Assembly: GCA_951406725.2 (NCBI GenBank)
Contig: OX597842.1
Coordinates: 21,204,001 to 21,268,000, forward strand
Reading direction: 5' to 3'
Origin: Octopus vulgaris
Lineage: Eukaryota
Length of the DNA: 64,000 nt
Positions 3,975 to 60,500 of this stretch are shown in pieces. The notes below the pieces were generated by a model. That model saw only the letters and a list, made by a program, of their open reading frames with translations. It was not told the DNA's origin and did no database searches. The position numbers and the translations under genes were made by a program. The first letter of the stretch is position 1. Each line of letters opens with the position of its first letter.

Positions 3975-4058
3975 ATGGATGTAAATAAGATTATAAACAA
4001 CATTCTGGATGGGGACTTTGAAGATGTCAAACAACTTATCAAAGAAAATCCTGAAACG
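3975..4058 (+). CDS. First identifiable coding exon, MDVNKIINNILDGDFEDVKQLIKENPET (ankyrin N-cap)
   Basis: Pyrimidine tract and AG at 3971-3972, ATG at 3975, donor gtaagt at 4059. GDFEDVKQLI matches an ankyrin-type helix. An upstream exon probably exists. Confidence 0.8.
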
Positions 4059-7780: not shown

Positions 7781-7932
7781 GTCAACCAAATAAACTCACA
7801 CAGTAAAACTTTCTTAATGGCAGCTTGTGCACAGGGCAGCACAAGTCTAATAGCCTTCTTGATAGAATCTGGAGCCAATATAGACATGAGTGACAAAGGC
7901 AAGAATACAGCATTGCATTATGCTGTGAAAAG
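7781..7932 (+). CDS. Ankyrin exon VNQINSHSKTFLMAACAQGSTSLIAFLIESGANIDMSDKGKNTALHYAVK
   Basis: ttctcttcag acceptor, gtaagg donor; ankyrin consensus (GANID..D..NTALHYAV). Confidence 0.92.
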
Positions 7933-11024: not shown

Positions 11025-11181
11025 CCACCGAACTGATGTTGTCGCCTTCTTAGTCTCCAGTGGAGCAAATGTTAATAAGCATAACTCATGGGGCGACACA
11101 CCTCTACATCTGGCTGTGGAGAAGAACTATGAAGATGTAGTCAAAGTCCTGTTAAATAGCAAAGAAAATAACAATTTACAG
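11025..11181 (+). CDS. Ankyrin exon HRTDVVAFLVSSGANVNKHNSWGDTPLHLAVEKNYEDVVKVLLNSKENNNLQ
   Basis: ttcctttcag acceptor, gtcagc donor; GDTPLHLA motif; phase 2 to 0. Confidence 0.93.
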
Positions 11182-11644: not shown

Positions 11645-11901
11645 GTTAATCTGCGAAATATTTTGGGTTGCATAGCTCTCCATGTTGCCTGTCTCTTTGG
11701 ACACATAAAGGTTGTTGAACTTCTCCTGCAACAGAATGGCACGGATGTTAATGCTGTGCAGGAAGATGGTTGGACAGCTCTCCATGTTGCCTGTCACTTT
11801 GGACACAGAAAGGTTGTTGAACTTCTCCTGCAACAGAATGGCATCGATGCCAATAAGGTGAACCTCAAGGGTGACACTCCTCTACATCAGGCAGTTCGAA
11901 A
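11645..11901 (+). CDS. Ankyrin exon containing a recent 102-nt internal tandem duplication (ALHVACxFGHxKVVELLLQQNG twice)
   Basis: tttttag acceptor, gtaagt donor; GWTALHVA and GDTPLHQA motifs. Confidence 0.93.
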
Positions 11902-12719: not shown

Positions 12720-14135
12720 GTATGTTGTTGGCATCGTTTTTGTCTCAGGAGACAATGGAGTTGCGCATAAAATAGTCTAGTCCGGCTTTTACATTTCATG
12801 TCCTGATACATTTCCTGCTGTGGCTGTGTAGTCCTGTCCTGGACAAACACTCCCTCTGGCAGGTACTGCAAATGTAGCGAAGACTGTTCCTGGCTGGTTG
12901 TAGTGTCATAGTTTCTTGTTGACTTCTTTTCTTGTCTTTCCATTTCTCCTCTCTCTCTCTGTCACTCCTTTGTATTCCCTCTTTTACGGTACGTCCCCAA
13001 TCTCCACGGTTGCTGGCAATTGCTTCCCAACTGCTAATATTGATGTTGCAGGCCTTCATGTCCCTTTTGCAAACATCCTTGTAACGTAAGAACAGTCTAC
13101 CCACAGACCTAGTACCCCTAGCAAGCTCTCCGTAGAGTATGTCCTTGGGGATTCTACCATCTTTCATACGGCTAACATGCCCAAGCCATCTCATACGTCT
13201 TTGTGTGAGGAGTGCAAACATGCTTGGTATTCCTGCTTGCTTGAGGACATCTTTGTTGAGGATATGATTCTGCCATTTGATGCGGAGGATTTTCCGGAGG
13301 TAGCGCAGGTGAAAGATGTTTAGGCGACGCTCTTGGCGTGTGTATAGCGTCCAAGTCTCACTTCCATACAGTAGAGTGCTAAGTACACATGCCTGGTAGA
13401 TCTTCATTTTCGTGGTCTTAGTCAGCTTATTGTTGTCCCATGCCCGTTTGGAGAGTTGGGCCATCGCAGCAGCTGCCTTGCCAATGCGTATATTGAGCTC
13501 AACATCAAGGGATAGGTTGTAGGTGACGGTAGAGCCAAGATAGGTAAACTTCTCCACCTCCTGTAATCTGTGGTCTCCAATATGTATGTTTGGGATGTCC
13601 GATATAGCCTGACCCATGATGTTGGCCTTCTTAAGTCTGATAGCTAAGCCAAAGTTGTTACATGCTTGCTCAAAACAGTTAATGAGCCTTTGGAGGGCTT
13701 CTTCTGTGTGTGATACCAGAGTGGCATCATCAGCAAATAGCATCTCCTTGATCAGGACGTTTCTGATTTTGGTCTTGGCACGCAGGCGCGAGAGATTGAA
13801 CAGTTTCCCGTCACTTCTACTGTGCAGAAACACTCCATCATCTGATGTCTGAAAGGCATGTGAGAGCAAGAGCGAGAAGAAAATGCCAAATAATGTAGGA
13901 GTGAGGACACAACCTTGCTTTACCCTGCTTTTCAATTGGAAGGTGGCTGATGTTGAACCATTGTGCTGTATGGTGCCTTGCATATCATCATGGAAAGACT
14001 TGATGATCCTCAGCAGCTTTGGTGGACATCCGATTTTTTGGAGCAGGATGAAGAGGCCTTTTCTACTTACCAAGTCAAAGGCCTTTGTTAGATCAATGAA
14101 GGCCATATATAGTGGCATTTTCTGCTCTCTATGTG
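12720..14135 (-). mobile_element. 5'-truncated RTE (BovB-like) LINE with intact 440-aa RT/C-terminal ORF 12796-14118, antisense in intron 4
   Basis: FIDLTKAFD, VKQGCVL, LFADD, YLGS, LLYGSETW motifs; C-terminal CxxC..HxxxC finger; short 3' UTR. Confidence 0.95.
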
Positions 14136-14334
14136 TATGTATATATATACATATATGTGTGCGTGGTTGTTTTCGGGTATATGTATTTGTTGATATATAT
14201 ATATATATATATATGGATATATACGTATGTAGTTATGTATGTAAGCATGTATGTGTGTATGTAAGCTTGTATTTTCTGTTTTTTGGTTTATCTATGTATA
14301 TATGTGTAAGCGCACATATACGTGTGTATGTAAC

Positions 14335-16253: not shown

Positions 16254-16290
16254 GAGGCACTATGATGTGGTTGCTTCAATGCTGGTCCAG
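16254..16290 (+). CDS. 37-nt exon RHYDVVASMLVQ completing an ankyrin repeat
   Basis: Long pyrimidine tract plus cag, gttagt donor. It supplies the phase 2 to 0 link needed between the flanking exons and fits the ankyrin second helix. Confidence 0.85.
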
Positions 16291-19358: not shown

Positions 19359-19571
19359 GATTCAGTGAAACTGGATATTGAGAACAATCGTAAAAGAACA
19401 CCCTTACTGGACGCCATGTATGCAGCCCACCTCGGAATAGTCCATAAACTTATTATACATGGTGCGAACATGAATGCCGTCGACAATGATGGCAATAATT
19501 GTTTGCACCTTTCCATAATAAAGAAAGGGATGTTTCATTCTGAGGTGGAACACATTTACATTTTAGATAAG
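19359..19571 (+). CDS. Ankyrin exon DSVKLDIENNRKRTPLLDAMYAAHLGIVHKLIIHGANMNAVDNDGNNCLHLSIIKKGMFHSEVEHIYILDK
   Basis: ccacaaag acceptor, gtaagt donor; ankyrin consensus. Confidence 0.92.
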
Positions 19572-21355: not shown

Positions 21356-21534
21356 TGCTGTGCTAAGCTTGGGTTGCCGATCAAAAAGAGGCTCTCTGGT
21401 GTAGGAGTCGCTAGCTATCTATCCCACCAGGGGGCCAACTTGTACAGGAAAAATAATAAGAATGTAGCTCCATTGGACCTCATTGGGGATGCAGATTTGA
21501 AAGAAAAATTTAAAGTATTATTCCCCCCACCACA
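21356..21534 (+). CDS. Last ankyrin exon CCAKLGLPIKKRLSGVGVASYLSHQGANLYRKNNKNVAPLDLIGDADLKEKFKVLFPPP
   Basis: tttgtag acceptor, gtaagt donor. A.YL...GA.L..KN....PLDL resembles the terminal ankyrin of Mind bomb proteins. Confidence 0.88.
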
Positions 21535-26275: not shown

Positions 26276-26400
26276 ATGTATGCTTTGTGAAGTGAATAAA
26301 GCCAGCATGGAGTTACAACCCTGTGCACATACTGTTTTATGTGAAGATTGTAGCAAAATTCAACTTAAAACATGTATAGAAAGCAAAAGAAGGAGAGTTG
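26276..26400 (+). CDS. RING-HC (IAP/MIB-type) exon CMLCEVNKASMELQPCAHTVLCEDCSKIQLKTCIESKRRRV; 8th zinc ligand absent
   Basis: ttttttccacag acceptor, gtaaga donor; pattern C-x2-C-x11-C-x-H-x3-C-x2-C-x7-C-x2-S. Confidence 0.88.
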
Positions 26401-27653
26401 GTAAGAATATGATTTGATGATCTGTCTGTTTGTCACATGACATTATGGAATGGAATAATGTTGTATCAACCCAGATCTGTCATAATCTGACAGACGTATG
26501 ATAAAAAATGTCCCAGGTGTCTTTTCTCTTTGATAGTATATCCATGACTACACCCACTGAATATTGTCTTTATCCAAGTAGGAAACCTGTCCCACATCAA
26601 AAGAGTACTGTCTGCAACATAAGACTAATACGTTTTACTGAAATATAAATGAAATATCAATAAATCTCCAAGGTCCCATCAGTAAACATCAACTTTTTAT
26701 ATTCAGTTGTCAGCTTTTATATGAGGTTAATGATTTATAAGTACCTTGGGAAACTGATAATTAAGGACAACAGTACTTCCTACAACATCACAGTCAGCTT
26801 TGTAATGTAAGAATTTCAATGACAAAATCTCAACTGAGAGTTTAAGACTCTTAGCGAGTCTTATATATTCTTGAGAATGAATTCTAGTGTCCCATTTCAG
26901 ATATAACTCCTTTGCAATAATGTGTAGATAAACAGTTTTAAGTTAAGGAGGTTTTATACAAATGTAATGTTTCAGGATACCTCTTATCACTTTCTGCTCC
27001 ACCTGTGTAGAACTAATCATTGCTCACCTGGAAAAAGAAAAAGCTGCTTATTAATGAGGATGAATGACATTGAAATATCTTCAGATCTTTCCTGAATCAG
27101 GTGGTATTCTGGTGAAGTGTGATGTGGGCAGTTAAAATTAAAGATTACCAACTGTAACATATAAAAATGAGGGCTGGGGTATGTTTATCCTTCCTGAACC
27201 AATGTGTCATGCCTTTGTGGCCAGATCTTTGAAGACCAGATTGGTTGACACTGGAATTTAGCAGAAAATGAGAAGAATATTGGTTAGTGAAGGTTCGAGA
27301 TGAGAGGACAATGGCATGTCATATGACCAGCACAGACATAACAAAGGAAAGACAAAATTAAGAGAAAAAGAGTGTTATGAAGGGATAAATAAGTGAGAGA
27401 ATTTCAGAATCCTTAGATTAGTATATAGGATGTCTTAAGAGAAAGATGAGATTTAGAAAGGTTTGCCTATTTTGTTGTGGTTCTAAGTATTGAACTATTA
27501 TATAGTAACAGCTTAGAAAGTGTTGACTGAAAGCATAGTGGTCACCAATTGACTATTGATGATATGAATGCCTTACAAAAATGGAATATAGATTATTAAA
27601 AGAGACAAAGAAATTTTACTATGAAGTATAAAACTTTGAAATGCTTATTTCAG

Positions 27654-27704
27654 TGTGTCCAAAGTGTACAGAAAAAGCAGTCAAGACGGTTGTAGAATCT
27701 GTTG
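27654..27704 (+). CDS. Mini-exon A (51 nt) VCPKCTEKAVKTVVESV
   Basis: ttatttcag / gtgagt; phase 1-1. Confidence 0.82.
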
Positions 27705-27819
27705 GTGAGTATAAAATATCTGTAATTGATTTCTATAAATTTTACCTTCACCTGAGATATATTATTTGTGTGAATGACTGAGAACAGGTTCCATTCTTAA
27801 TTTCCAATTCTTATTTCAG

Positions 27820-27855
27820 AATGTCCAAAGTGTAAAGAAAAAGTAGAATCTTTTG
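27820..27855 (+). CDS. Mini-exon B (36 nt) ECPKCKEKVESF
   Basis: ttatttcag / gtgagt; phase 1-1; in-frame 15-nt deletion relative to A. Confidence 0.78.
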
Positions 27856-27970
27856 GTGAGTATAAAATAACTGTAATTGATTTCTATAAATTTTACCTTC
27901 ACCTGAAATATATTATTTGTGTGAATGTCTGAGTACAGGTTCCATTCTTAATTTCCAATTCTTATTTCAG

Positions 27971-28021
27971 TGTGTCCAAAGTCTGAAGAAAAAGGAGTCC
28001 AGACGGTTGCAGAATCTGTTG
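27971..28021 (+). CDS. Mini-exon C (51 nt) VCPKSEEKGVQTVAESV
   Basis: ttatttcag / gtgagt; phase 1-1. Confidence 0.78.
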
Positions 28022-28136
28022 GTGAGTATAGAATAACTGTAATTGATTTCTATAAATTTTACCTTCACCTGAGATATATTATTTGTGTGAATGACTGAGA
28101 ACATGTTCCATTCTTAATTTCCAATTCTTATTTCAG

Positions 28137-28187
28137 TGTGTCCAAAGTCTGAAGAAAAAGCATTCAAGACGGTTGCAGAATCTGTTG
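28137..28187 (+). CDS. Mini-exon D (51 nt) VCPKSEEKAFKTVAESV
   Basis: ttatttcag / gtgagt; phase 1-1. Confidence 0.78.
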
Positions 28188-28970
28188 GTGAGTATAAAAT
28201 AACTGTAATTGATTTCTATAAATTTTACCTTCACCTGAGATATATTATTTGTGTGAATGACTGAGAACAGGTTCCATTGTTACATTTCTTTCAAATGGTT
28301 AGCGATAAAAGTAATTCTATTCGCTACCTACAAATGCAAGAATATCCAATAAAGGGGTTTTATAGAAATATGGAAACATGAGACACAGGAAAAATGTCTT
28401 TCACGATGAGGCCAAAATACAAAAGATAAAATATAAACCCTGAAGCTGTTCTCTCCCCATAATGAGATACATTCACTTTTCTTTCATCTCATTGTTGTCT
28501 CTCTCTCCTTCCCTGTTTCTTCCTTCATCTCTCTCTCTCTCTCTCTATGCATCTACATGTAGCAGCCTCTGTACTTTCCAGTCGTGTAACAACATGAATT
28601 GTATTTAAAATATTGATATTACAGAAATTTAATAAAATGTCCAGCAGTGTTGGCCCTGTTGCTAAAATGGTTAAATTAGAAAAAACAAACAAACAATAGA
28701 GTTAATATTGTCTTTTGAATGAAGGAAGAAAAACATTTTGTTGTTTAATGGTAAACAGGTGAGTTAATGACAGTGTTTGTTTGTTGTACATTTTCAATAA
28801 GTTTACTGATTATTGTTGTTGATGTTCTTGTTGAACAAGATGGTTAAGTTGAAAGCTTACAAGTGTGATCACCCTGTCTTTTTTTTTTTACTGTTAGTAA
28901 ATCTATCATTACATCCATTAAACGATGTCTTTGTCCAAGTAAGAAGCTTTGGTCTGCTGCTGAGACAATT

Positions 28971-29008
<38 letters not shown>

Positions 29009-30497
29009 TAAGATGGACACTGGTTGCAAGATACAATACAATCGATGTTATTGTCCTCATCATTTACAGTCTGCTCTCCTTGCTTCCATGTAATGGATGG
29101 GTAATCACTGTCCAAGTCAGTTCTTATTCAGAGTTACTGTCCCCCTTGACTGCTTGAGAAACACATCTCCCTTAAACATTCCACCTTTTCTATGGTGGGA
29201 TGCCCTCCCCCCAACACCAACCACTTCATAAAGAGTCCTGAGTACATTTTAATGTGGCACAAGCACTAGAAAGATTTTCATGTGTCCAACATTGAAACTG
29301 GAATAGCTGTAGGTTGCACACTATCAGTCACTTAGTTTGTGCTTGTTATGGGGATCGGCAGATTTATGAGAAGAAATTACTCAGGCGAAATCATCTAAGA
29401 AAACATTCATGGATGACATAAAAATGCTAACAAGAGATCCAAAGTATATGCAATCAGTCCAAGATAGATTGGATGGACTAATTAATTGCTCAAGAATGCT
29501 GTTTGAAACAAATAATGAATGCATTCTGACATTTGTGAAAGGTCAACAGAAGCAAGTGAAGTTCAAAATAGCAGGAGAAATGATGCGAAAGGTTAAAGAG
29601 TAACTTGTAAAACGTTTTGGACTGTGGTAGATGATCTCATTGTCCGATAAGAGTAGAGGCATTGATGTCATTGCAGAAACCGAGGATGGGCAATAAGCAT
29701 TTGCCAAGTCAAAACTTCTGGGCAAAAACAAGATTTGGTGCTTGAAGTTTGATCTATATCACCTTCTTGATAATATATTCTTAAATATCACTTCTTTTGT
29801 ACCATTTCAGATATTTTTTCCTTTGCAATAATCTGTGTATGAACATTTGCATGTTGTTAAAGATGTTTTGTGCAAGTATACAGTGTTTTAGGATACTTGC
29901 TATCACTTTCTGTTTCACCTGTGTAGAACTTATCATTGCTCATCAGGAAAGAAAAGCATTTCATTAAGGAGTCCTTAAATATTTCCTGAATCAGATGAAA
30001 TTCTGGTGAACTGTGAGTTGCATTGTTTAAAATTAAAGATTAAAAGCAGCAACGTTTGACAAAGATAACAGGTGTGACATGAGTTTGTGTCAAGGTCATT
30101 GATGACCAGCTTGGTTGACATCAGAATTAAGCAAAAGAAGAGGGGAATGTTGATTAGTGAAGTCCAGTGGTGAGGGGACAATGCCATGTCATAGGTTTAG
30201 AATGGATACAAGAGATACATGTGATCATTAAATAAGATGATTGCAACGTTGTTAGATTAAGTAGGATGTCTTAATAGAAAAAGGAGGCTTAGGAAGGTCA
30301 GTCTATTTTATTATGGGCCTAAATATTGAGCCATTATATAGGACCACGGTAGAAAGTATAAAACTATCAACCAAACCTATAGTGGTCAGCAGTTGTCCAT
30401 TGATGATAGGAATGTCTTACAATAATAAAATATAAACCATTAACAGAGATCAGGAAATTGTGCTATGAAGTGTAAAATTTGGAAATATTTATTTCAG

Positions 30498-30569
30498 ATT
30501 CTGTAATGGTAGAGGAGATTCATCTTCATAGGGTGTCCCAAAAGTTGGCAGGTAAATGGATGGAACTTG
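30498..30569 (+). CDS. Death domain N-terminal exon DSVMVEEIHLHRVSQKLAGKWMEL
   Basis: ttatttcag / gtgagt. L..V...L...W..L matches death-domain helices 1-2 and joins in frame to GRELGI. Confidence 0.85.
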
Positions 30570-31557
30570 GTGAGTATAAAATACCGAATTTCTATAAATT
30601 TTGCTTTCAGCTAAACTTTTGTTTGTTTGAATGACTGAGAACCGATTCCATTCCTAATTTCCAATTGAAAGTTTAGCTATAAAGTAAAGCTATCACTGAA
30701 ATTTCATAAAATATCTATGGACGTCAGCACGGTTGTAAAATGTATAAATTAGGTCCAGTAGAGTTAATATTATCGTTTGTAAAAGGGGACTCAAAAATAT
30801 TGTTGTTTAAGAGTAAACAGGTGAATTAATGACAATGTTTTTGCTTGTTTACACTTTTAGTAAGTTTACTAGTAGAGTGTTGTTGTTGATGTTTATTTTG
30901 GCAGATATCTGCCTTAATCTGGCAGAATTAAGGGGAAAGGGTTCCAGATGTGCCATCGCTCTTTCTCTTGGGTGAAGAGGACCACATTATCAAATGTAAC
31001 CTTTTTAAAATGAGAGTGTGCATTGTGTGGAACATGTTGTCATCTCTCCCCTGGCCAGTCTGTTTTTCTATATTTATTGTAATTCTTTAGTCCCAGGTCA
31101 ACATATATTTCCTGTCTCTATCGAAGACAGGCCCCATTGTTGATTGTGTTCATGGCTGGATTGAACTCAGCATTGTAAGTTAATGAAACACTCATTTATA
31201 TTAGAAAAAAAGAATCTCAACAGAAAATTCAAACTCAACTTGATCTTGTTTCTCAATTGAAATCATTTCACTCTCCTTTACATTACAAATGTCACGTGGA
31301 AAGGCATGAACATCACAATATCCCATTTCCCTTTCTCCGACAGTTTAACACAACATAAAATATCATTTATACAATGCTCCTATTATTTACAGCAATGTCT
31401 TCTACCTCCCTATGGTACCTATATACATCTAGATAGAATGAAGCATAGAGAAATGTCTTTACCAGGTACATTGAGCGGTGCTGGGGATTAGATTTGAACC
31501 TTTGATCCCTGACTCAAGGGATCATGACAATATCCCTTGAGTCAGCTGATAGAAACC

Positions 31558-34120: not shown

Positions 34121-34326
34121 GAAGGGAATTAGGAATTCGACAAAATGACCTGGAAATCATCAGGCATGACTATCCTCAAAGCGTTAGGGAACAAGGCTTC
34201 CAGATGCTGTTCAAATGGCATCAAAGTACTGATCCAGAGAAACGTACACTTCAAATATTAAAAGCAGCTCTTAAGGAAACTGAATGTTATGATGCACTCA
34301 AATGTTTATCATCAGAATTCAATTGA
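34121..34326 (+). CDS. Terminal exon, death domain C-terminal part GRELGIRQNDLEIIRHDYPQSVREQGFQMLFKWHQSTDPEKRTLQILKAALKETECYDALKCLSSEFN*
   Basis: tcttttgcag acceptor; death-domain consensus (W..LGR.LG....L..I....P....EQ...ML..W......T...L..AL); stop TGA 34324-34326. Confidence 0.92.
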
Positions 34327-34504: not shown

Positions 34505-35501
34505 GGATCTTTACCTTTCGACCGGCAGATTTAGAAAATAATTTCTTGTAACTAAACACTTTCAAACTTCGTATTCTGGTAGAATGTGTTGTATAAAACA
34601 TCTTTTACTCTTAGCGTTTTGAGAAAAGTTTATATTTACAAAGTTATTTCATGTTAAATTTGTCGTATTTCGGTAATTTCAACCAATCAATGGCGTGTAT
34701 TCATCTGAATAAAATTACTGCTGTTGTTTGTCAACAACAACTTCTGGCAGTGTATATTTCGTTTGTCACTGTTATTTATGATATATTTCATCTCAGTTAT
34801 GTTTGTATAAAAAACGAGTCTATCTGAAACATGTTTACTTCATGGCACCACCATAATCGTTCGTGCATTTCTACTGGTTTTAGTTATGTTTTTTCCTGTT
34901 TTTCAGCTACTATTTTTGGTAAGACTTTTTAACCCTAACCCTAACACCTTAGCCCTAACACTAAAACCCTAACCCTAACCCTAAAACCTTAGCCCTGACA
35001 CTAAAACCCTTGCCCTAACACTAAAACCTTAACTCTAACACTAAAACCCTAACCCTAACCCTAAAACCTTAGCCCTGACACTAAAACCCTAGCCCTAACA
35101 CTAAAACCTTAACTCTAACCCTAAAACCCTAACCCTAACACCTTAAAGCTAAAACCAGTACAAATGCACGAACGATGTCATAAATAACAACAACAAACGA
35201 AATATATACCACCAGTTGTTGTTGACAAACATCATCATCATCATCATCATCCTTTAACGTCCACTTTGCATGCTAGCATGGGTTAGCAGTAATTTTATTC
35301 AGCTGAATACACATCATTGATTGGTTGAAATTACTGAAATACGACAAATTTAACACGAAATAACTTTGTAAATATAAACTTTTCTCAAAAACGCTAAGAG
35401 TAAAAATGTTTTATATGACACATTCTACCAGAATACGAAGTTTGAAAGTGTTTAGTTCCAAAAATTATTTTCTAAATCTGCCGGTCAAAAGGTAAAGATC
35501 T
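34505..35501. mobile_element. Foldback MITE with ~280-bp TIRs, 8-bp TSD (ggatttgg) and internal (CCCTAA)-like repeats
   Basis: Arms 34505-~34790 and ~35177-35501; TSD 34497-34504 and 35502-35509; telomere-like core 34930-35140. Confidence 0.88.
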
Positions 35502-57503: not shown

Positions 57504-60500
57504 GTTAGTTAGTTAAGTTAGTTAATCTTTTGGCTCATAAGCAAAAAGCAATGCCATGTAGGGGGACATGGAGTTAAGTACAGGATGGTGTTCATGTAAA
57601 GAGTTCAGGCCACTTGAGGTCAAGGGAGACTTTGAACAAAGCGGTCGTCGGCATCTTCACCATCTCGTCTGGCAGCTTTTTCCACGGATCCGCAACCCGG
57701 ACGGAGAAAGCTCCTCTCCTTCGATTGAGATGAAATCGTCGCAGGTAGAGCTTTTCGGAGTGACCCCGCAGCCGACGCTCTGGAGCAGGAGTGAAGAACA
57801 GCTCTTTCGAGAGGTTACACTTTCCACTTATGATGTTGTGAGCGAGAATGAGATCACCACGGCGGCGGCGTTTTTCTAGAGAATAAAGGTCGAGCGTCTT
57901 CAGCCTTTCTTCATAAGTCAAATTCTTGAGACCATGAACCATGCGGGTAGCCAGCTTCTGGACTCTTTCGAGATGCTGTATGTCTTTGAGGAGATAAGGA
58001 GAAGAGGCTTGAATCCCGTACTCCAATATGGGTCTCACCAGTGTGACATAGAGCGGTAGGAATATGGCTGCTGTGAGCATTCCGAATGACCGTCGAATCA
58101 AGAACAGAATTCCGCGTGCTTTGTTGGCAGCATGGACGCACTGGGCCGAAGGCGAAAAGGAGGAATCCACCAAGATACCCAGGTCCTTTACCTGATTGGT
58201 CCTCTCCAGCAGCAGACGACCCGGCTCAAAATCAAGTTGAGTTGCAGGAGGAGAGCCAACAGGCAGATGACAGCACTTTGACACGTTCAGACACAGGTCC
58301 CATTCGTTAGACCACCTCCAAATTTGGTGGAGGCATCGACGAAGATCCTCTATATCACCGCGAGGAGCGACCAGTTTGACATCGTCGGCAAATAGAAGGG
58401 TGTGTTGCGTGAGGTCGTCGGGCAAGTCATTTATGAAGACTAAGAACAATAAGGGCCCATGCACTGAACCTTGAGGCACGCCACTGCTCGCACTGGAGAT
58501 GTCGGGCCGCGAACCATTAACTTGAACTTGGAAGGAGCGATCTGAGAGGAAGGCACCAACCCATCGTACAATATCAGGATGGAAACTATATGCTTGAAGC
58601 TCGACAAGTAATAGGCGGTGGTTTATTGAGTCAAAAGCTTTGGCAAAGACCAATAAAACGATGTCAACAGCATCACTCTCATCGAGGATGCGCATCACCA
58701 ATTCTTACCAGTAAGTTGGTCAAGCATGATCTCTTCGGCACGAAGCCGTGTTGGGAATCAGAGATAGAGGCTGTGTTTTGGAGGTGGAGCATCATACTTT
58801 TCTTAAGGATGGTTTCGAACATCTTGCTGATTATTGATGTAAGGGAAACCGGTCGGTAGTTAAGCGGGTCTTCGCGGCTCCCTTTCTTGAAAATTGGGCA
58901 TATTATCGCTGTTCTCCAGTCCGCAGGTATAACACCCGTCGCCAATGACATATTGAATAGACATGTTAAGGGCTCGCAGATGACTGGAGCCAACGCTTTG
59001 ATAACCCGTGGGTGTATGCCGTCACGGCCGTGACCCTTGTTGACATCGAGGCCTTGAATAACATGTTTGACATCGTCCCGCGTGATGACCAATCGAAGCA
59101 TTGGAGGTACCGATCTATCAAATGGAGGGGGTTCACGACCATCATCTTGTTTGAAAATAGTTGAAAAAGCCTCGGCAAATAAATGACTCTGTTGATAAGG
59201 GCCTCAATCGATACGCCTATTGAGTCTACCAACGTTGCAATTTGGTTGTTCAAGCGGGAATTCCGTTGGACATGGGCAAAGAAGGTTTTTGGATTGCTAC
59301 TGGCGTTTGCCGCGATATTGTATTCATAACTGAAGCGTTCTTCCTTTTCAATTTTCACGGCTCGGTCTCGTTGAGTTTTGTACACCTCAAAAGCTGCAGT
59401 CGAATCCAGATTTTTGAATTCAGCCCAAGCAATATCTCTGAGTCGAAGTTCTCGTTTAACCTTCTTCGTCACCCAGGGCTTGTGTTTCTTCTTCTTGGGA
59501 AGCCCAACGGGAACTTCCTGGTCAGTCAACCAGATTACATATGCTTTGAGGGATGACCATAGTTCGTCAACTGAGGACAACGTCATCAGGGATCGCCAGT
59601 CCAGAAGCGCGGAAGCCTCGGTTAGAATTTCAAGATTAATTGCAGAGAAGACTCTACGTGGCAGCGAAGTAGTCGTGGGCGCAGAAAAAGTTGTGTGCAT
59701 GACGAACTTCAGGACCGCATGATCAGTCTTGGCAAGAGGGGCGCACACAGATACGTCTGACACTGATCTTGGGTAGCGGAGAATAACAGATCCAGCATAG
59801 ATGGCTGATGCCCAGACCGATGCCTTGTCGGATATTCAACATGTTGCGATAGAAAACAATTTTCAGCCACGTCAAGAAAGGCCTGGCCGAACCGGGAAGA
59901 CGATGTACAAATTGATGCGGGCCAATCGATCGTGGGAGCGTTGAAGTCTCTTAATATCAAACAGTCATGAGAAGCTGAAACGAATTTTATCGCTTTGAGT
60001 AAATGAGCATCGTCCTGGGGGTCGGCAAGAGGCGGCCTGTAGACAGCTAACACAGGCAGGCAAAACTCGGATAGGCTCAGCTTGCAATAGACGGCATCGA
60101 ATTTTGTTGTAGGTTGAGCATTAGTGGGTAGAATACCGCTGGACGGTTTGAGATCAGATTTAACATACACAACAACACCTCCACCTCGCCTTTTTTCTCT
60201 GTCACATCTGAAGAGGACGTAGCCCTGTAGGTGGATTTCTGAGTCCTTTACTGCTGGAGTCAGCAGTCTCGGTGATAGCTATCACATCAGGGGAGTCACG
60301 CATGGCCAGTGTAAATAGTTCGCTGAACTTTGGAAATAAGGAGCACGAGTTGGTATAGACGATGCTGAGCTGTGAAGTTTGAGGGGCGGGAGTTGGGGAA
60401 CAAGCAGAATAAGGGGTATCAGAGATGGCATCGTTGACGGGGGTATCTACTTTACTTCGATTTGCCCTCAATTCACTTTCCCTGTCAGCACTACAGCATG

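Follow-up and report, generated by a model that had tools for sequence, protein, structure and literature searches.

A spliced array of linker mini-exons behind a deleted RING in an Octopus vulgaris ankyrin-RING-death-domain gene: likely LC8 docking and a predicted replacement for the lost zinc ligands

The window, a stretch of 64,000 nucleotides of the Octopus vulgaris genome (contig OX597842.1, positions 21,204,001 to 21,268,000), carries on its forward strand one complete gene of 14 exons (3975-34326) with an open reading frame of 556 residues. The exon model is identical to the annotated protein P0026 (CAI9743652.1), which has a MIB2-like database name, and the predicted domain order is ankyrin repeats, a RING, four mini-exons (termed cassettes) and a death domain (Table 1). 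As in the Mind bomb proteins, ankyrin repeats are followed by a MIB-type RING1, matching the zf-C3HC4_3 family as in MIB2, and the RING exon with its flanks matches the first RING exon of the two-RING Mind bomb-like octopus genes (E 6e-13). The differences from MIB2 are also clear: the N-terminal MZM and REP domains gave no Pfam match in P0026 over the exons of the model, the C-terminal catalytic RING2 is absent and the linker and death domain stand in its place, and the octopus family comprises dozens of paralogs. The window gene is an intact member of a large, MIB2-derived Octopus family of ankyrin-RING-death-domain proteins. The literature listings searched, which cover few subscription journals, showed no description of this family or of its linker; supplements of cephalopod genome papers may list the family. 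In the ankyrin repeats of the window gene (11645-11901) and of the paralogs P0005-P0047, the frameworks are near-constant while surface positions vary, in the manner of a binding library.

Table 1. Exons and repeat features of the window gene (positions within the window)
Feature	Position	Strand	Description
Exons 1-4	3975-4058, 7781-7932, 11025-11181, 11645-11901	+	Exons 1-7: ankyrin repeats and MIB-type pre-RING region, from the exon model matching P0026
Exons 5-7	16254-16290, 19359-19571, 21356-21534	+	As above
RING exon	26276-26400	+	125 nt, ends in phase 1; zf-C3HC4_3, MIB2 RING1 homolog
Duplicated segment	26863-27809	+	Upstream intron, exon and downstream intron; homology with 29773-30666 (death-domain exon 1 and its surroundings)
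Cassette 1	27654-27704	+	51 nt, phase 1-1; CPKC at 27656-27667 (C403, C406), candidate replacement ligands
Tandem array	27694-28288	+	Exon plus intron, 166-bp unit, three 115-nt introns; TRF, 3.7 copies
Cassette 2	27820-27855	+	36 nt, phase 1-1; CPKC
Cassette 3	27971-28021	+	51 nt, phase 1-1; CPKS; LC8-type EEKGVQTV, anchor Q441 at 28000-28002
Cassette 4	28137-28187	+	51 nt, phase 1-1; CPKS; LC8 anchor lost (KAFKT)
Death-domain exon 1	30498-30569	+	72 nt, phase 1-1; member of the exon class from which the cassettes derive
Death-domain exon 2	34121-34326	+	Carries the stop codon; PF00531, E 4.9e-9

Relative to intact paralogs, the RING exon has an 18-nt in-frame deletion (near 26365) and a 3-nt insertion (near 26387). 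The deletion took the whole fourth Cys pair, ligands 7 and 8, so that six native C3HC4 ligands remain in the exon. The Cys of TCIES, which intact paralogs also carry in their tail, has slid into the ligand-7 register. The initial annotation had counted seven of eight ligands, which is correct by position and incorrect by descent. Comparison with the paralogs indicates that the damage is a deletion and not the wear of point mutations. A search of the same genome returned 14 matches. Among the nine closest paralogs the RING is intact in five, ending in RCPKC within the same exon, while one is frameshifted, one has Cys7 changed to Phe and two are degenerate; damaged RINGs in 5/10 closest copies mean that decay is common. 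In one copy with ligand 7 changed to Phe (L097, G000:C29, RING exon near 28040900, minus strand), a C-K-T-C lies three residues downstream, a possible second route by which a fourth pair might be rebuilt from the tail Cys. Two annotated loci of O. sinensis share the deletion and also have these four cassettes, in unchanged order. The two species diverged about 2.5 My ago (10.1101/2023.05.16.540928), which is too short a time for a shared deletion to prove selection. It had been proposed that intact RINGs in paralogs would make this copy simply a decayed one. Such paralogs exist (5/9), but the window copy keeps an intact reading frame, is spliced and is shared with O. sinensis.

The anatomy of the cassettes was confirmed as first described, including their lengths (51, 36, 51 and 51 nt), phases, splice sites, two CPKC and two CPKS motifs, and three 115-nt introns. 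The AG/GT splice sites are kept at all four, and all 16 cassette combinations translate without a premature stop; these are symmetric in-frame exons, as expected of a combinatorial array. The array unit containing cassette 2 is 151 bp long, and this cassette arose from the 51-nt CxxC type by loss of 15 nt. As to their source, a segment of 950 nt around cassette 1 aligns with the region of death-domain exon 1 at 67% over 984 columns (E 5e-83), and intermediates are kept in the paralogs as 72-nt linker exons and as ETPK-type death-domain exons, the latter aligning to cassette 3 with a single 21-nt gap. When only the exons were aligned, cassette 3 scored higher against ETPK-type death-domain exons (z 4.8-5.7) than against four RING2 starts (2.1-2.8), while cassette 1 gave conflicting scores (z 5.0 for one RING2 start, at most 2.9 for death-domain exons, 7.7 for a 72-nt linker exon). 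The homology of the flanks decides in favor of death-domain exon 1, and by these alignments the cassettes are its shortened duplicates. The proposal that they derive from the start of RING2 was abandoned, as the cassette unit had no blastn match (E <0.01) in four Mind bomb-like loci that include RING2 exons. Derivation from the RING's own CPKC end was likewise rejected, the flanks being dissimilar (best E 0.94) and the exon alignments scoring z 3.0-3.5.

Splicing of the array was assessed in contigs assembled from sequencing runs, including X1, X3, X15 and X16, which are not recorded as RNA and whose RNA nature was guessed. GT-AG joints across the array were present in four small RNA-like runs from four studies, with the cassettes joined in series. 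In X1 and X3, from two studies, contigs are identical to the deleted allele over 26341-26400 and then continue into cassette 1, which carries one base change giving Lys after CPKC, as in O. sinensis; the X1 contig extends only 25 letters to the left of the deletion point, short of the 31 letters required by the search tool. No paralog stretch checked contains the 31-mer spanning the deletion junction. To our analysis this is the new observation: RNA-like contigs splice the deleted RING directly to the CPKC-bearing cassette 1. Cassette 1 was the sole continuation of the deleted allele in 2/2 RNA-like runs, bearing in mind that contigs lose rare forms. The depth of the deleted-allele contigs at the joint (296 vs 481 and 292 vs 622) amounts to a sizeable share, depth being a poor measure of abundance. 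The large runs X15 and X16 yielded an intact-RING contig only, which is no evidence of absence because contigs drop rare copies. In the O. sinensis annotation, an alternative acceptor 15 nt within death-domain exon 1 creates additional in-frame length variants.

To place the cassettes within the family, we surveyed linker exons in 66 ten-kb stretches including the window. Exons were called from splice-context patterns, duplicates were removed by coordinate, and false calls, recognised by a list of 12 initial peptides or by membership of a 22-nt class, were dropped. In 62 of the stretches the survey identified 173 linker exons together with 41 first exons of the death domain; in three cases two stretches fall on a single gene, and long arrays could be truncated. 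In all, 164 of the 173 linker exons are in frame; 159 of these have the AG and none contains a stop, a state above chance. Every length class that descends from the 72-nt exon and has several copies (36, 48, 51, 57 and 78 nt) is a multiple of three. Each stretch has from 0 to 8 linker exons, and in P0064 and P0066 the RING is joined to the death domain with no linker. Across the family, the cassettes form a linker whose copy number varies from one paralogous protein to another. CxxC occurs in 34 exons, every one on contigs C29 and C27, and CxxC cassettes are present in 13/34 loci scored as having an intact RING (one of them the Cys7-to-Phe copy), so their presence does not mark out the broken copy. 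As the first cassette, CxxC is found in 1/34 intact-RING loci and in 0/8 closest paralogs. In the C29-type cassettes pN/pS is 1.15, arguing that there is no overall purifying selection. Three further arrangements were seen: L085 (G000:C29:21134985-21144984), a neighbouring paralog lying some 60-70 kb upstream of the window, combines four CxxC cassettes with an intact RING; in L078 (G000:C29:30212922-30222921) the cassette block is duplicated whole as a 3.5-kb unit, resulting in at least eight linker exons; and on C31 the 78-nt linker exons of L110-L113, L129 and L133 carry RCVQTE anchors along with two or three Cys apiece and make up a second class of Cys-rich linker.

We then considered if cassette 1 could complete the RING. 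RING-HC domains allow 4-48 residues before the last ligand pair, and joining the RING to cassette 1 gives the eight-ligand pattern with a spacing of 17 between CEDC and CPKC. This spacer is longer than the 6-14 residues found in 29/29 parsed octopus RINGs (1/30 was unparsed). In a MAFFT alignment with 21 other octopus RINGs, their last pair falls on C403/C406, and with that alignment AlphaFold predicted residues 361-410 at pLDDT 86-95, with a helix at 383-395. An alignment with close paralogs instead takes the deletion register, and the cassette of an O. sinensis isoform is then at pLDDT <50. In these models, a confident RING arises from the RING-cassette 1 join only if the alignment prompts it. 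Against a PF13920 cut-off of 27 bits, the RING-to-cassette-1 isoforms reached 23.5 and 26.3, a RING-to-cassette-2 form 29.8, a CPKS-first form 24.6 and an intact paralog 30.3, and Pfam coverage runs through the CPKC in CPKC-first isoforms only. In fold searches with both models the matches were all ankyrin proteins, and the RING was not reached. The closest solved sequences to the intact paralog RING are RING-HC domains of the IAP/MYLIP type (cIAP, XIAP). IAP-type RINGs dimerise through a tail beyond the last Cys pair (PMC5655547), and the window copy differs from them in having no native fourth pair; it would use a 17-residue spacer and a tail from another exon. Repair of the RING by cassette 1 is thus feasible on modelling grounds, and the suggestion in the initial annotation that a CPKC cassette could complete the RING is plausible for this cassette, which is the one spliced to the deleted RING. 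That its CPKC does fill zinc site 2, mostly as a fixed repair and not as a switch, is a prediction to which we give about even weight.

A switch had been the original proposal: alternative inclusion of CPKC or CPKS cassettes, in up to 16 combinations, would toggle the RING between complete and incomplete states and hence its E3 activity. The in-frame combinations and the restriction of Pfam coverage to CPKC-first isoforms agree with this, as do skip-type joints in the contigs and the RefSeq annotation of one O. sinensis locus, where 22 isoforms (21 examined) include the RING joined to each cassette. However, 5/5 skip-type joints tested can be accounted for, within 1-5 mismatches, by exons that are constitutively adjacent in paralogs or by window exons that are nearly identical to each other, and such joints cannot be assigned to this copy; no tested joint calls for 16-way combinatorial splicing. 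The 22-isoform locus is without the 3-nt insertion and therefore has the RING end seen in intact paralogs (first cassette CPKS); mis-mapped paralog reads could have produced its models. At the O. sinensis locus with the insertion, and thus a distinctive RING end, 5/5 isoforms examined start with cassette 1, of at least 15 that exist; the exclusive continuation of the deleted allele into cassette 1 in O. vulgaris, subject to the loss of rare forms noted above, also speaks against a switch. The E3 activity of RING1 is itself doubtful. In human MIB2, RING1 is dispensable and RING2 is required for cFLIP ubiquitylation (PMC7815719), so E3 activity cannot be taken for granted in intact family members either; the accessible part of PMC5912950 holds nothing further on RING1. 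Since CxxC is also present in intact-RING paralogs, the idea of toggled E3 activity is weakened, and we regard the switch as very unlikely. The octopus array resembles Dscam1-type arrays, which consist of tandem symmetric alternative exons arisen by local duplication. It differs in that its cassettes are joined serially with no sign of mutual exclusion, and its diversity lies mainly between paralogs.

Another account is that the RING is decaying and the adjoining CPKC is a coincidence; the protein, if functional, would serve as an ankyrin-death-domain adaptor, while the cassettes of C29 would be drifting tandem copies in which the ancestral LC8 site discussed below is mostly lost. The frequency of damaged RINGs among the closest copies, the CxxC cassettes at intact-RING loci, the pN/pS value, the low pLDDT of the cassette in the deletion-register model, the dispensable human RING1 and the short time since the species split all fit this account. 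It is harder to reconcile with the rarity of CxxC in first position at intact loci, with the splicing of the deleted allele to a CPKC cassette in two studies at a sizeable share of depth, and with the open frame kept in both species. We consider it rather unlikely. In the reading that we prefer, the protein would sense through its ankyrin repeats and serve as an adaptor through its death domain, with a RING that is perhaps structural and not catalytic.

A second property of the linker concerns LC8 (DYNLL), a hub protein that dimerises its partners. The motif [TVIS]-Q-T stands at one fixed register in 62/159 in-frame linker exons, comprising 38/56 outside contigs C29 and C27 and 24/103 inside, and in none of the 34 CxxC exons or the 41 death-domain exons. 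Outside C29/C27 the anchor Q is the least-changed position: it is kept in 34/36 distinct exons, with 2 changes on a flanking-intron tree vs 4-11 elsewhere. A shuffle test by class found the anchor in 5/10 classes against a mean of 0.32, a result biased by the choice of anchor-bearing representatives and by the relatedness of the sequences. Three divergent KxVQTV units occur in P0051 of O. bimaculoides, a species about 34 My distant (10.1101/2023.05.16.540928). According to published rules, LC8 motifs have the anchor [TVI]-Q-T, a polar residue at -4 and a large or basic one at -3, with P, D or E at +2 and Val disfavoured there (PMC6607443). Cassette 3 (E-K-G-V-Q-T) fits these rules from -4 to +1 but has the disfavoured Val at +2, where E is present in 21/36 distinct exons outside C29/C27, and it resembles the LC8 site of gephyrin, EDKGVQCE (PMC12057147). 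Cassettes 1, 2 and 4 fail the rules; the anchor was lost from cassette 1 by a Q to K change and from cassette 2 with its 15-nt deletion. Overall, the anchor is missing from 97/159 linker exons, including three of the four in the window. Linker residues 426-478 have pLDDT <50 and are disorder-like, which is a weak indication because no alignment rows covered this stretch.

To assess docking, a complex of octopus LC8 (L115) with two copies of residues 428-464 was modelled. The LC8-cassette 3 model scored 0.75 vs 0.32 for the best control, with at least 86% of contacts agreeing across runs and a partner pLDDT of 51. The modelled interface comprises residues 433-442 and 444 and would place Q441 against LC8 residue 63 in the canonical register, while cassette 4 on the same chain is unbound. 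The score mark was calibrated on microbial pairs, where it was passed by 51/78 solved and 2/108 mismatched pairs, and peptides fall outside that calibration; the pass may also reflect likeness to solved LC8-peptide complexes. Taken with the motif, the model suggests that the cassette linker likely docks LC8. Known multivalent LC8 clients (ASCIZ, KANK1 L2, gephyrin) similarly repeat short K-x-[VTI]-Q-T motifs in a low-confidence linker, and in KANK1 many weak LC8 sites stiffen linker L2 into a rod (PMC12803091). The octopus candidate sites differ from these in being separate phase 1-1 exons, derived from a death-domain helix exon, whose number varies among paralogs. It is probable that each intact exon supplies one LC8 site, with exon number setting how tightly two chains are zipped together between RING and death domain, and that in the window gene only cassette 3 retains such a site.

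The strict separation of CxxC and LC8 anchor (0/34 CxxC exons) could alternatively mean that in the C29 subfamily the CxxC cassettes have replaced LC8 sites as inter-chain zinc hooks, two CxxC motifs on two chains sharing one Zn, and the presence and multiplication of CxxC exons in intact-RING paralogs would suit that role. The exclusion may nevertheless trace to a single ancestral exon, and 17 linker exons belong to the 36-nt class, in which the motif is deleted. In Rad50 the zinc hook motif is flanked by coiled coil, and here no coiled coil flanks it. We judge this explanation highly improbable.

Our preferred reading, which we hold as evenly poised between right and wrong, is a spliced linker of variable copy number that likely docks LC8, together with a cassette 1 predicted to replace the deleted Cys pair. 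LC8 dimers would bind linker sites on two chains and so hold the RING and death domains in pairs, and unequal crossover would alter the number of sites among paralogs. Many exons of the C29 subfamily would have lost the anchor and some acquired CxxC; in the window gene a CxxC exon would have come to lie in first position, where it may restore zinc site 2. A stronger version, in which a copy of the death-domain exon became an LC8 module, gained CxxC and rebuilt the RING, and splicing now sets both RING integrity and LC8 valency, appears decidedly unlikely. If the preferred reading is true, the locus would illustrate stepwise exon co-option, from death-domain helix exon to LC8 docking module to replacement zinc ligands, with intermediates persisting in paralogs. 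It would also offer a small testable system for the tolerance of the RING fold to rewiring and for the tuning of LC8 valency by exon number, and would add a mechanism to the octopus ankyrin-RING-death-domain family.

Other elements were also observed in the window. An element of about 1 kb (34506-35500) consists of inverted arms (34506-34722 and 35285-35500, about 95% identical) around telomere-like TAACCC repeats, and the same element lies 3' of the gene in several C29 paralogs. Open reverse-transcriptase-like LINE frames, named by eye, are present on the minus strand at 12796-14232 and 57592-60278, one of them inside intron 4 and open for 478 codons.
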